Shown: positions 13,391-62,148 of the stretch, piece by piece
Layout: the number at the start of each line of letters is the position of its first letter
Numbering within the stretch: position 1 is the first letter of the stretch
Source: Eledone cirrhosa
Taxonomy: Eukaryota
Direction of reading: 5' to 3'
Length of the DNA: 64,000 bases
Assembly: GCA_964016885.1 (NCBI GenBank)
Contig: OZ024741.1
Span: forward strand, 198,338,001-198,402,000
The notes under the pieces: generated by a model
Database searches by the model: none
Told to the model about the DNA's origin: nothing
What the model saw: only the letters and a program-made list of their open reading frames with translations
Made by a program: the position numbers and the translations under genes

Positions 13391-13562
13391 TAGAAGTGGT
13401 TACACAACAGTTAGTTCACCATACCGAGAACAATTGTTTCACCTTAGCGGAACAATTGTTTTCGGTATGGTGAACTAACTGTTGTGTAACCACTTCTACC
13501 TAACTCGTCCCATGGACTGAGTGCTCTACCACTACGGATATTACCTTCCAGTGTTGAACCAC
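13391..13562 (+). mobile_element. Fold-back element A (about 108-bp palindrome + ACTC/GAGT hairpin tail) in (TA)n
   Basis: Arms 13391-13441 and 13449-13498 are reverse complements; ACTC at 13503, GAGTGCTC at 13519. Confidence 0.8.
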
Positions 13563-14903
13563 TATATATATATATATATATATATATATATATATATATA
13601 TATATATATATATATATATATATATATATATATATATATAAACGAGATGTCCTACACGAGTGAAAGCATAAGGAAAAGAAATCGAAAATCCAACTGGAGT
13701 CTTTTTAAGGATATTTATTTGTTTCCTTTACCGGTTTCACAGTTCTTATGCTTTTCAAAAGTAGAATTGAGATGGAGGGTTTGTTGTTTTTCTCGCATCT
13801 GGTTGGTGTTCGAAAGTTATTTCTGTGTTATGTGGAAAGAGTGGCTCGAATTGATGGGGGGGGGGGGTTATAATTTGGTTGGTTGATGACTATCTCGTGA
13901 ATAAGTACAATAAATTTCGCGCCAGTTTGCGTTACAAAGTTCTTGTCGTATTTGCCTTTAAATTGTTGTTGGGCTCAAATTGTTTTGTTTTTTTTATAAG
14001 TGTAATTTGGTTGGACTGTCACGTGAATAAATACATCAAATTTCGCACCAGTTCGTGTTTGAGGGTTCTTTATTGCTATTTTCACAGTCATATGATTGTC
14101 CAGATAATATAGGCGGTTTGTGATAGAGAGTTTTGTACCAAACAAAAGATAATAGTAAAGAAAAGGGAGGGGGGGGGATCTTTCTGGTTCAGTGAGTATG
14201 GCTGATGTGCTATATTTGCAAACAAGCAAGTAGGATCGTCAAACACACAAATCCGAACGCATACACACCCAGAACAAGCGCAAGCAATCATCGAATGCCT
14301 TATACGTAAATAATACACTCAGAAAACAAAACCAACAATAAACAAAATATCTAGTTGTCAAAACCATTGGATTCCAAACTCGTCATAAATATATTTGTAA
14401 AAACAAAGCCAATCATTTATATATCCCAACCTCTAACCCGCTCTAAATATGAGTATTAGGAAGACGGACTTTTTCAAGCTGCAGCCGTTAAATTATGCCG
14501 TTTCTGTGTAAGAATAGACATTAAACAATATCTATTATTACCTGCAGCGACTATAACCCCATTACTTAATAGGTCTTGGTTCCACCCTCGCCCGTATACC
14601 CTTAACATTAAACCCTCAAATAATCCCCTAAGAGGACGTGATGTCGCGCATCGGGAGGCCCAAGTTTCAAATAAACATAAAATACATACTCGAATGTAAA
14701 ACATAATTACGATTAGATAAAATACTAAGGTATTAAAGAAGAGAGCGAAATGATTCCATAATCTAAAAACCAAAATAAAAATAAAGAAAATACCCAAATT
14801 ATTAAGAAATAAGCGAAATGAATCTATGATGAAAAATATAAATATATCAGAAAATACTATAGCAAAAGGCGACACAAAATATATAAATTTCAGTGACATT
14901 ATT

Positions 14904-15090
14904 TGGATTGGCAGTATTGGTAGAGGGTCGGACGCCATGCTTTGACGCAAAGAGTTACGGCCCTTTCCATTCTGAGTTCAAATCCCGCCGAGGTTAACTT
15001 TGCCTTTCATCCTTACAGGGTCGATAAAATAAAGTACCAGTAATACACTGGGTAATTGTTGGCCTTGTGCCAAAAGTAGAAACAATTATT
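14904..15090 (+). mobile_element. SINE family A copy
   Basis: Same sequence family as 9460-9640; ends AGAAACAATTATT. Confidence 0.88.
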
Positions 15091-15239
15091 AATATACAAC
15101 ACACGTAATATATACACTTAAATGTAAACCACAATTAAGATTAATTAAAATATGACACATATCTACAAGCATAAAATATTCAACCACGTAATCAGAGAAT
15201 AGCAAAAGATTAACGAGATAAGACTTAGCCCCCTGGATC

Positions 15240-16880
15240 GTTTGGTGGACGCAGACAAAGTGCGAGAGTCAGTACCTTGGCACTATTTTCTGATGTTGCC
15301 GGTCAAGTAACGGTCAATCAAAATACCAACAAAGGTTTATAGAATTTCATTACCCCTAAACAGAGCTAAATTCTGAGTAGGTCATTATAGCATACAGTTT
15401 AAGGTTCTACAGTTTCAATGTAAAATTACATACCCCTTACTTTTATAAAAATTACTATATCATGGCAAATATACCAAAATTTATTTAAATCTCAAGCAAA
15501 TAAATAAAATTAAGAATAAAATAAATTCAGACCATACACTTTTCAAAGCAAACCGAAACCAACAAACCCCTCCAAAAAACTTTTTGGGTCTTTCTTAAAT
15601 ACGCTAAGCTTCTACTACCTTAAAGCAAATAAGTTAAATTTCAAAGTCATATGTCTCTCATCTGCAAAGTAGAAATAACCCCGAATTTTCTCAAAATCTC
15701 CCTATTAACACCAAGGCACCCACGAAAACGCCGTATTACAAATTTCCATTTGTATCGGTCCTTCCATTTGTTTTAAGAGCTTATTCACTACCTCCGTAAA
15801 ACATTCATTTGGCTACTTATCCTAGCTTTCTTAAACCCTTTAGATAGTCAAACTCGCAGGGGGATAAATATAAATCCTGCCCTTTGGTTTGGTATGCCTC
15901 CAACCTGCCTGAAAACATTACCCGCGAATGTAAAGTAAGAACTATCTACTATAACTATCTACTAAGGACTATCTACATGAGCTTAACATTTGTCCAATTA
16001 GCGTATCTACTGTATCTTACTCTAGACATGAAACCCCCTGCCGTTCATGAAGGAAACATACTTGAATTTATTGGCGAAAATCAGGTCTATTATACAACCC
16101 ACCCCTTTTTTTTTAACTAACTCCAGTTCCAAACTAGTGTAAAGGATGTTTTTATCGTCTTCAATCTATTCAACATAGTTAAAAACCATCAGCAGATCCT
16201 ACACTCCAACTCACATTCATTCCACTGTTTGCAAGAATTGCCCCACAATATCTATCAAAGACCTCTTTAACTACTGCTAAAGCTCCGTTAATTAAAATAG
16301 CTACTTGTCTATTTGTGCACCTACTAGCTCCGGTTATAAATCTACACCCAAAAAGTGTTAAGACTCTAGGAACATACACATTATCCTCCTTCAACTGGCA
16401 ACCACTCAGATCCTCTACTTCACATCTAAGTTTTACTATCAGCTGATTAATATCTCCCGGGCTCAGCTTGTAAGTTCCATTACACCAAAAGTTATAATTA
16501 ACATCACATCTTAACTCCCTTGCTAAAACCGACAGGAATTATTTTTTGCATATTATAACGAAATTACCTGCTGCTTTATCTGCAGGCGCTATGATATACC
16601 TATTGCGAAACCCACTCAAAAATTGCTTCACCTCAGGTCCATAACGTTTAGACGGCCCCTGTGTCAACGTGCCCAACCTACTCCTTAACCTACTCTTTAC
16701 TAAGCTAACAACTCTCTCCTTCCATTTCTAATACACCTCACTAGCAAAACCAAATTTCAGGTCTAACTTAACCACGAAATCATCGATTGGTTCTAACACC
16801 AACTTACATACCGTGGACCTGTTTGTCCCTATAGATTCCCTAAATTTAATTCCCTTCATCATAAACCATCCTTCTTCTCG
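15240..16880 (-). mobile_element. Second, heavily decayed Penelope-like RT relic (different lineage from 1277-3177)
   Basis: Minus-strand fragments MKGIKFRE, YIIAPADKAAGNFVIICKK and RFITGASRC...NSGMNVSW. Boundaries are approximate. Confidence 0.65.
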
Positions 16881-16892
16881 ACTATAACACTA

Positions 16893-60108: not shown

Positions 60109-60654
60109 TATCTATATACTACTAAAACTCTGTGATTATGTCTTGTCTGTAATTTAATACAGCCAAAATGGTGCATAATGGGAAAATACTTTGAAATGGG
60201 AATACAAATGGAATAAAACAAGTTTCGCGTAAATCAGAGCACAGGTTCCCAAGATACGGGGTTTTTCCGGGTACTTTCATAAATAAAGAGAGAGAAAGAG
60301 ATAGTAGTTATAAGAGAGTAGATTGAAAGACACCCATATATATATTTATATATATATATACACACACACACACACACACACACAAAATATTTTTTACATA
60401 ATTAAAATACACACATATCTGTGTATATTTTAATTATGTAAAAAATATTTTTAAGTAAACATGACCCAACGAGTCACAGGTGGTCTAGTATTATATATCG
60501 ATCTCTTTTGATATGTATGTGTGTGCGTGTATATATATATATATATTTATTTATAAACATACCGTGTTTCTTTAGAAATACAAAATTTCTACACATATCT
60601 GTATACAGCTACGCCTGAAGCTAAATCCTATTTCTATTCTATATATATATAAAT

Positions 60655-61209
60655 ATATAATAAAATAAAAAAAGGACGAGTCGTTACTCCTTCATTATGT
60701 TTATTGGTTGGTGACGTACGTTTTGCCACCGATCAGCTCAAGGTTCGATCTGTATCGATCTAACCTGACTCCGTAATCAATGGCTCATTGATTACAGAGT
60801 CGGGCTAGATCGATACGGATCGAACCTAGAGCTGATCAGTGGCAAAACGTACGTCACCAACTATTAAACGTAATGAAGGAGTAACCACTCGTCCTTGTTT
60901 TATTTTATTATATTACACTCAGGTGGATTGGCAGTATCGGTAGAGAGTCGGACGCCATGCTTTGACGCATAGAGTTACGGCCCTTGCCATTCTGAGTTCA
61001 AATCCCGCCGAGGTTAACTTTGCCTTTCATCCTTATGGGGTCGATAAAATAAAGTACCAGTAATGCACTGGGTATTTGCTGGCCTTGTGCCTAAAGTAGA
61101 AACAATTATAATACACTCTGTCTAGCTCTACACCTTGATACAGACGGGGACCTAAACATCGAGTGCTCACCCGGGTGAACCTACAGTAACTTCGTGTTAC
61201 ACTCCCTGG
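60655..61209 (+). mobile_element. Fold-back element E (about 260-bp palindrome) with a SINE inserted in its tail
   Basis: Palindrome 60655-60914; SINE at 60921-61110 flanked by TACACTC; GAGTGCTC at 61161. Confidence 0.82.
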
Positions 61210-61551
61210 ATATATATATATATATATATAATATATATATATATATACACACACACAGAGAGAGAATAACTAACTTGATGTTGAACTTGTTCAATACAAA
61301 AATGGAACACTATCTGATTTAAATATGAACTCAATATTTTCTAATTCTTCAGTGCTTAAAACCTGTAATCGCAGCAGTTCATGGTGCCTGTATTGGATTT
61401 GGTGTGGATCTAATTTCTGCTTGTGACATGAGATATTGTACCAAAGATTCATGGTTCCAAATAAAAGTAAGTAGCTCCCGTGATTTGACCAATGCCTTGT
61501 GGATGAAATTTGGTAGCAGAAATTGCAGAAGCCTGTCATGTATATATATAT

Positions 61552-61872
61552 CATTTCATTTCATTTCATTTTAAGTCCGCTTTTTCCCTGCTTGCAAGGG
61601 TGGGACGGGAACTGATTCTGGCTTGATTTCTACAGCTGGATGCCCTTCCTAACACCAACTTCATTTACAGTGAGTGCTGGGTGCTTTTTTTCCGTGGCGC
61701 CTACACGTCCACTTTACAGTGTGGGCTGGGTGATTTTTTGCCGTGACACCTCCACAACCATTTTGCAGTGGAATGATAGGGACCCCAGTCCCTATCATCT
61801 CATTTCTACAGCTGAGTAAACTGGAGCAATGTGAAATAAAGTGTCTTACTCAAGGAAACAACACATCACCCC
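61552..61872 (-). mobile_element. CORE-type SINE (family B) with RTE-related tail
   Basis: CCTTGAG(C/T)AAGACACTTTATTTCACATTGCTCCAGTTTACTCAGCTGTAGAAATG resembles the CORE domain. Confidence 0.8.
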
Positions 61873-61898
61873 ATATACAGATATGTATATATATATAT

Positions 61899-62148
61899 AT
61901 AGGAAAATGTATGACCCCGACGGTAGAGCTCAAGCCATTTCGACAGCTATTCCTGGACTAAACTAGAATTTTTAACTAGCTGAAAATTCTAGTTTAGTCT
62001 AGAAATAGCCGTCGAAACGGCTTCAGCTCTGCCGTCGGGGTCATACCTTTTCCTATTACCCACTCTACTACCCTAAGTATTGAGTACTCTGGTGCGTTAT
62101 GGCCCATCCATCTGGTGCGTTATGGTTCCTTACCACAACTCCTTCGTT
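61899..62148 (+). mobile_element. Fold-back element D
   Basis: Palindrome 61899-62056; ACTC at 62062, GAGTACTC at 62082. A related partial copy lies at 59225-59311. Confidence 0.82.

Follow-up and report, generated by a model that had tools for sequence, protein, structure and literature searches.

A 64,000-nucleotide (nt) stretch of contig OZ024741.1 from Eledone cirrhosa (the window; positions are counted from its first letter) contains five palindromic fold-back elements, S1 to S5, each of which runs into the same type of small bulged hairpin. On balance, these fold-backs are probably 5′-truncated, inverted end fragments of hammerhead-bearing Penelope-like elements (PLEs), likely of the Hydra clade, with the hairpin a likely RNA signal fixing the start of cDNA synthesis. 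As no open reading frame (ORF) is attached to the window copies, they are assigned to the Hydra clade as likely rather than as members. A previous sequence-only reading had placed the fold-backs in a class of non-coding elements mobilised by Penelope-like machinery. The Penelope-like link is supported by hammerheads in the arms, by two fixed ends running into (TA)n and by the same hairpin at the boundary of ORF-bearing Hydra-clade consensi. The class label is probably too strong, the simplest description being truncated PLE ends, autonomous or not.

The boundary hairpin and its placement

The palindromes were recovered on the forward strand where they had been reported, at 13391-13498 (S1), 17611-17658 (S2), 48839-48962 (S3), 60655-60913 (S4) and 61899-62056 (S5). 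The arms are complementary at 98% in S1, 85-90% in S3 (48839/48847-48955/48962), 91% in S4 and 89% in S5; the short S2 palindrome has its left edge at 17609/17611 and its right edge at 17658. All five arm ends close with TA or TAT on the sense strand (TA and AT make up 17% of dinucleotides). ACTC follows after 4, 0, 4, 3 and 5 nt in S1 to S5, in agreement with the 0-5 nt read before, and GAGT(A/G)C was likewise found in all five.

The motif behind the arms is larger than first described. It consists of RCTC, an inner stem of 3-5 bp, a bulge of 1-2 nt and GAGY-RCTC. In the window copies the outer stem is ACTC/GAGT, the bulge (T, TT or TC) lies on the 3′ side and RCTC stands right behind GAGT; this GAGT-RCTC extension is present in five of six copies, S2 having GAGTACCT. 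An inner stem, earlier recognised in four of the five fold-backs, occurs in every one: GTCC/GGAC with bulge T in S1 (13503..13526, GAGTGCTC), TAC/GTA with TT in S2 (17659..17681), TACT/AGTA with TT in both S3 (48967..48990) and S5 (62062..62089), each with GAGTACTC, and TGT/ACA with a long loop and bulge TC in S4 (61115..61168, GAGTGCTC). The S4 stem appears once a younger short interspersed nuclear element (SINE) on the forward strand, at ~60921-61104, is removed. The SINE splits arm from hairpin, which then lie 3 nt apart, and is flanked by a 14-nt target duplication (60907-60920 / 61105-61118) with one mismatch, ending in ACTC. Of the two ACTC positions listed before for S4, 60917 is the left copy of this duplication and 61115 belongs to the hairpin itself. 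The SINE (60907-61118 with its duplication) inserted exactly behind ACTC, so that the boundary is kept twice.

The tails end at 13562 (S1), ~17713 (S2), 49016 (S3), 61210 (S4) and 62147 (S5, with a copy-specific duplication). Counted from the arm end they measure 54-99 nt, longer than the 30-60 nt first estimated. The (TA)n hosts of the sequence-only reading hold for the left flank of all five and the right flank of four; on its right S2 continues into (CA)n after a short ATA. A sixth copy of the motif, S6, lies on the minus strand with its tail at 21975..22059. Its hairpin (22059-22016) has an inner stem CGGAG/CTTCG with one G-U pair and bulge TC, followed by an A-run and (TA)n. S6 is likewise flanked by (TA)n and is not preceded by a palindrome; an inverted 5′-truncated copy beside the sense copy is thus seen in five of six motif-bearing copies. 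The preference for (TA)n is common to Naiad and Neptune elements as well and is therefore not diagnostic for the Hydra clade.

The loose ACTC..GAGTRC pattern is not enriched in the window (8 seen, 6.4 expected from 300 shuffles), so the pattern by itself means nothing and its placement is what counts. The reported tie to palindrome ends was borne out: the probability that at least four of six palindromes have the loose pattern within 6 nt is P ~5e-12. The window holds six small-loop palindromes and the motif adjoins five; the sixth (60384-60451) was scored as a miss, with nothing closer to the motif than a degenerate ACCC..GAGT version 12 nt downstream. A structured descriptor, set after the data had been seen, gave six matches, each of them at the end of an element; 150 shuffles yielded 0.31 on average and never more than 3. 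Another, looser strict version of it gave seven against 0.21 expected, the seventh lying at 57496 away from any palindrome or microsatellite. Pattern matches at 35129 and 57496 were set aside as chance, since they lack either an inner stem plus bulge or a surrounding element.

The six window copies show five different inner stems; when interiors are shuffled, the product of the probabilities of at least three pairs is 6e-7. Covariation was scored by script. Public reads were compared with S5 only (61902-62147), in runs X1, X5, X7 and X21 of 23. In run X7, depth is ~10,400 over 62064-62081 versus 29-43 over the arm, the hairpin being ~250x deeper. Among the 40 of 66 variants listed, those of the hairpin fall in the loop (62073, 62074), the bulge (62081) and the last base (62089), and the single stem variant, C>T at 62063, retains a G-U pair. 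No Rfam model reached its gathering threshold among 43 weak matches, nearly all of them microRNA models on palindromes or microsatellites.

Hammerheads, fixed ends and Hydra-clade consensi

The arms had been described as unrelated, which is true of their sequence and not of their layout. Four of the five (S1, S3, S4, S5) contain the 3′ half of a hammerhead ribozyme 48-73 nt above the hairpin; S2 is too short, being truncated below the hammerhead. In S5 the half is found at 62014 (GAAA, 6-bp stem III, GTC site, 3′ strand of stem I). In S3 it lies at 48916 (GAAA, short stem III, TA), with AATAAA at 48949, and in S4 at 60844 in decayed form (AAAA for GAAA, palindromic stem III, TC). The right arm of S1 starts with a hammerhead-like half (GAA, palindromic stem III ACAATTGT), the weakest of the four assignments. 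One of the two complete hammerheads in the window stands above S6 on the minus strand (22117..22171): it is of type I, with a 5-bp stem I, core CTGAAGA, long stem II, palindromic stem III and AATAAA behind, and the S6 hairpin follows 74 nt below its GAAA. The 5′ hammerhead half, predicted beforehand for intact relatives, is present in one contig of run X5 as a U3-A8 core followed by a strand pairing with stem II of the S5 arm. The U3-A8 core, long stem II and opposite-strand hammerhead pairs in truncated copies are known PLE traits (PMC4209133, in the text available), as are inverted truncated pseudo-long terminal repeats (pLTRs), junction palindromes and one-sided tails (PMC8557442 and PMC3846280, available passages).

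The S5 family is abundant, with 15,028 contigs in X1, 18,648 reads in X21, 24 in X5 and 337 in X7, counts that are not copy numbers, X21 being a restriction-site-associated DNA (RAD) library and X1 possibly the source sample. Two fixed ends bound its one-sided tail (23 of 416 loose ends and 15 of 64 joints were listed). At the first, 62056, 5 nt before the hairpin, the sequence gives way at once to (AT)n in 107 contigs of X1, 3,319 reads of X21 and 1 of 24 in X5. At the second, loose ends at 62106/62108 continue through the remaining tail into TA. In a second S5-family copy on the minus strand of the window (59224..59312), 56 nt of inverted arm that end at the same boundary are linked to the final ~25-30 nt of tail; the two pieces do not overlap and form no palindrome. 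Opposite-strand joints like it, pairing 61996-61998 with 62031-62123, are seen among the joints listed. Priming at two fixed sites in two separate events explains the asymmetric copy and the joints better than a single fold-back does, although later deletion from a palindrome may mimic some of them. Inversion joints of the family cluster in public reads at 61994-62001, inside hammerhead stem II, and depth drops sharply upstream; the cluster may mark a stall of the reverse transcriptase (RT) or a variable loop.

These copies bear directly on a simpler scheme, in which one cDNA folds back on itself and a hairpin in the cDNA halts second-strand synthesis and so ends the arm. Self-priming has been proposed for rotifer PLEs (PMC3846280, available passages), and it would agree with the palindrome centres, whose loops are 0-12 nt at four; the S5 centre is within the loop of stem II and coincides with a native 10-nt palindrome, which the X5 contig also has. 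In the 59224-59312 copy and the joints, however, an arm ends at the boundary though the tail-side piece never reached the arm, and the wobble pairs of the hairpin favour the sense strand over the cDNA. A single fold-back is accordingly considered quite improbable. The notion that every centre is an exact native stem II hairpin was dropped as too strong: by eye it fits S1 and S3, the S5 centre falls within the loop, and the S4 centre lies 60 nt above GAAA.

Six published Hydra-clade consensi (Craig et al. 2021, File S7) were read by eye, without program scoring. Coral, sea-cucumber and copepod elements have the hairpin at their unit boundary; it is clear in three of the six (coral, sea cucumber), degenerate in two and absent in one. 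In the clear cases its outer stem is GCTC/GAGC, a compensatory change relative to ACTC/GAGT. A clear hairpin follows the hammerhead GAAA by 56 nt in Hydra-2_Amil and by 51 nt in Hydra-2_Ajap, with tails of 54 and 50 nt from hairpin start. Hydra-1_Ajap has two hairpins at its 5′ start (nt 3 and nt 64), 61 nt apart and above the start codon. Hydra-1_Crog carries two: one in the 3′ tail, which has a mismatched outer pair, and another type, with GCCC/GGGC, at nt 7. Across the tandem junction they are ~75 nt apart. An RT plus GIY-YIG ORF is present in published consensi with the motif, and none is joined to the window copies. Among 18 matches to the GAGYRCTC octamer in the whole supplement, 12 are non-Hydra, and in none of these do the displayed lines contain the complete hairpin; a match interrupted by a line break would escape such a scan. 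Twelve viral pattern matches were treated as chance, since none adjoins a palindrome or (TA)n within the 160 bases shown for each, and a pattern scan of metagenomes for the hairpin gave 0 matches. In File S2 (PMC8557442, available part), stem III of several Hydra-clade hammerheads is ACTC-N-GAGT, the same four pairs as the outer boundary stem; this likeness reflects either chance or shared origin.

The TA-rich flanks and long inverted arms might also suggest DNA transposons, either miniature inverted-repeat transposable elements (MITEs) or Helitron-like elements, with the hairpin as terminus. The tail is one-sided, however, the arms hold hammerhead halves, truncation and inversion joints vary, asymmetric copies exist, and the same motif occurs in ORF-bearing PLE consensi. 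CTRR, the Helitron-type end, is found in none of the five tails. A DNA transposon origin is therefore highly improbable and is refuted as far as tested; the inverted repeats of fixed length at both termini that mark a MITE or other terminal-inverted-repeat transposon are absent. A Naiad/Chlamys origin was rejected because those PLEs have no canonical hammerhead and the window copies have hammerheads. A non-LTR retrozyme was rejected too: there are no head-to-tail tandem hammerhead monomers, and the window copies are all single or head to head.

A possible role in cDNA initiation

Three roles had been offered for the hairpin, namely DNA nicking, RT priming and termination. Positioning of RT initiation is favoured over the other two because the sequence of the inner stem varies with its pairs kept and because the 59224-59312 copy cannot come from simple fold-back. 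The same pairing speaks to a motif acting in DNA, as an endonuclease site in the element's own end (GAGYRCTC would suit a dimer) or as an internal promoter at the unit 5′ start. In favour of this, different families and phyla have kept the sequence of the outer stem and octamer. Endonuclease recognition requires the tail in Drosophila Penelope (cited in PMC11167929), and a 34-bp repeat has scored as a basal promoter (PMC2377424), both according to the text available. Double-stranded recognition nevertheless leaves unexplained the varying inner stem with its pairs kept, as well as the sense-strand G-U pairs of S6, the 62063 variant and Hydra-1_Amil, so that a role in DNA is judged unlikely.

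The hairpin could instead mark an RNA cleavage or 3′-end site, tandem transcripts being cut just upstream by a new ribozyme, an element protein or a host nuclease, with RT starting at the RNA ends. Hydra-1_Ajap starts 2 nt and Hydra-1_Crog 6 nt before a hairpin, as expected for monomer RNAs, and AATAAA or ATTAAA stands upstream in S2, S3, S4 and S6. Against this, S1 and S5 have no poly(A) signal, the distance from signal to boundary varies from ~13 to 60 nt, arm ends adjoin (TA)n and not A-runs, and no Rfam ribozyme matched. Initiation is moreover internal, without prior cleavage, in PAc of lizard, the one PLE studied in vitro (PMC11167929, available text). Cleavage at the hairpin is thus not very likely.

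Positioning of RT initiation could proceed as follows. The hairpin RNA would be bound by the RT of the element and the cDNA start fixed 0-5 nt upstream, at TA or TAT. The endonuclease would nick both strands of (TA)n, and each nicked 3′ end would pair with TA(T) in the RNA and prime one cDNA, one at the pre-hairpin site and the other at the tail end, the hairpin holding the RT just below the priming site. Both antisense cDNAs would come to a halt within hammerhead stem II or close to it, and would then be joined head to head; overlapping cDNAs would give arm-arm-tail palindromes, and non-overlapping ones asymmetric copies such as 59224-59312. A second hairpin just past the tail, never itself copied, would set the tail-end start, making tail length equal to hairpin spacing. 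Such a hairpin is suggested by the spacings of 61 nt in Hydra-1_Ajap and ~75 nt in Hydra-1_Crog, set beside tails of 54-99 nt in the window. The presence of stem III and GAAA inside the arms indicates a template RNA uncut by the hammerhead. We tentatively propose as a possibility that two clade-wide bulged hairpins in the 5′ untranslated region of Hydra-clade elements each load one subunit of an RT-endonuclease dimer and fix a nearby upstream start, acting as a ruler for tail length that would explain tail and head-to-head inversions from RNA structure alone. The near-palindromic GAGYRCTC could pair two template RNAs.

The scheme has a parallel in PAc, as far as the available text of PMC11167929 describes it. 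There the protein both cuts the two target strands and extends them; RT begins at two internal sites within a stem-loop, and the tail spans the distance between these starts; downstream RNA is needed and hammerhead cleavage is not.

A number of observations weigh against the favoured account. The hairpins are not unusually stable (z -1.75 to +0.27), and minimum-energy folding forms the outer ACTC/GAGT stem only in S1, S4 and S5; in S2, S3 and S6 it does not appear. Just two consensi show the second hairpin, which was not seen in this genome; the consensi were judged by eye as stated, and among them the Hydra-1_Amil hairpin is weak. Hydra-1_Obim, the sole octopus Hydra consensus, has no hairpin and stops ~30 nt past the hammerhead. 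The boundary motif is not evident in the letters of the available PAc stem-loop figure and PAc tails are 30-40 nt, so that the analogy is one of kind and not of sequence. None of the six window copies has an RT or endonuclease ORF joined to it, and a scan of the window with eight short Hydra-type peptide patterns turned up a single stray, unrelated match. The sole PLE ORF of the window (1277-2781) is Neptune-like and lacks such a hairpin.

A motif conserved between this genome and corals, sea cucumbers and copepods provides exact bases to mutate and a numerical prediction, namely that tail length equals hairpin spacing. The hairpin is also a marker for sorting large numbers of ORF-less fragments. 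If true, the ruler reading would account for the tails and inversions of PLEs, the sister group of telomerase. Internal RT start and the origin of PLE tails and inversions are flagged as an open question in the available text of both main papers (PMC8557442, PMC11167929).

Comparison with known systems and neighbouring repeats

The complex insertions of endonuclease-containing (EN+) PLEs share with the window copies an inverted truncated copy, a palindromic junction, a one-sided tail, a pLTR hammerhead and a microsatellite target (PMC8557442, PMC3846280; available passages). They differ in tail length (54-99 nt here, 30-40 nt there) and in the bulged hairpin that here occupies the first tail bases across unrelated families. 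The words 'hairpin' and 'stem-loop' do not occur in the available passages of PMC8557442, nor 'hairpin' in those of PMC3846280. Any target-site duplication of the window copies is masked by their microsatellite flanks. The Hydra clade as described in PMC8557442 likewise has a (TA)n target and a canonical hammerhead close to its 3′ end, and where its consensi show the hairpin, the spacing is that of the window copies; the outer stem is ACTC/GAGT here and GCTC/GAGC or GCCC/GGGC there. Proteins of that clade are marked by RWK, DKT, a CxCX5C linker and the absence of CCHH, and no ORF is joined to the window copies.

PAc, a Poseidon element of Anolis (Frangieh et al. 2024, PMC11167929, available text), has in common two RT starts bounding the tail, cutting and extension of both target strands, an AT-rich target, an uncleaved hammerhead RNA template and a stem-loop at the start. 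It belongs to another clade and starts within the ORF in an AC-rich stem-loop, with no shared sequence evident, and the accessible text defines no conserved or paired signal for it. The minimal PLE hammerheads of Cervera and de la Pena 2014 (PMC4209133, text available) are likewise of type I with a long stem II, a short palindromic stem III, the U3-A8 variant and opposite-strand pairs; the boundary hairpin is distinct from the hammerhead and lies 48-74 nt downstream of it. No description of the hairpin was found in full-text literature, though subscription papers, Repbase or Dfam notes could hold one, and the available part of an octopus repeat annotation (PMC13282606) does not mention hairpins or palindromes. 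There is nothing unusual about the fold-back stubs as such. What appears to be new is the boundary hairpin, conserved and covarying, together with the ruler prediction.

Several other PLE-like sequences lie in the window. The Neptune-like ORF at 1277-2781 (minus strand) is broken, with RT, a C-terminal GIY-YIG domain, a CX4CX2C linker and an Asn-rich 5′ part, and shares 45% identity with P0001; nearby, 1105-1194 form an imperfect palindrome of 90 nt. Among relatives of this ORF the hairpin was found at none of nine metagenome loci, most of which lack a full 3′ end, and no relatives were found in genome contigs. A separate PLE end at 13174-13354, with a complete hammerhead at 13258, stands between two (TA)n runs and has no boundary hairpin. 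Another PLE-like end at 13641-13800 (minus strand) has a U3-A8-type hammerhead look-alike; the one (TA)n tract here accommodates three PLE insertions. A further hammerhead-like family at 55229-55646 (head to head), 56589-56667 and 648-738 has no hairpin. Upstream of the S6 hammerhead lies a 112-nt direct duplication of 80% identity (22544-22655 / 22332-22443, minus strand), which showed no similarity to PLE proteins by tblastn.

The surrounding animal DNA is rich in repeats, with numerous (TA)n runs, SINEs and long interspersed nuclear elements (LINEs), and to judge by its SINEs it probably resembles octopus DNA. Two LINE copies 20 kb apart (3241-6993 and 23554-27077, 93-99% identity) are presumably L1/Tx1-like, and ORFs at 9.8-13 kb, 42-45 kb and 50-53 kb are taken to be LINE-like. 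A minisatellite with a 31-nt period occupies 36783-38924.

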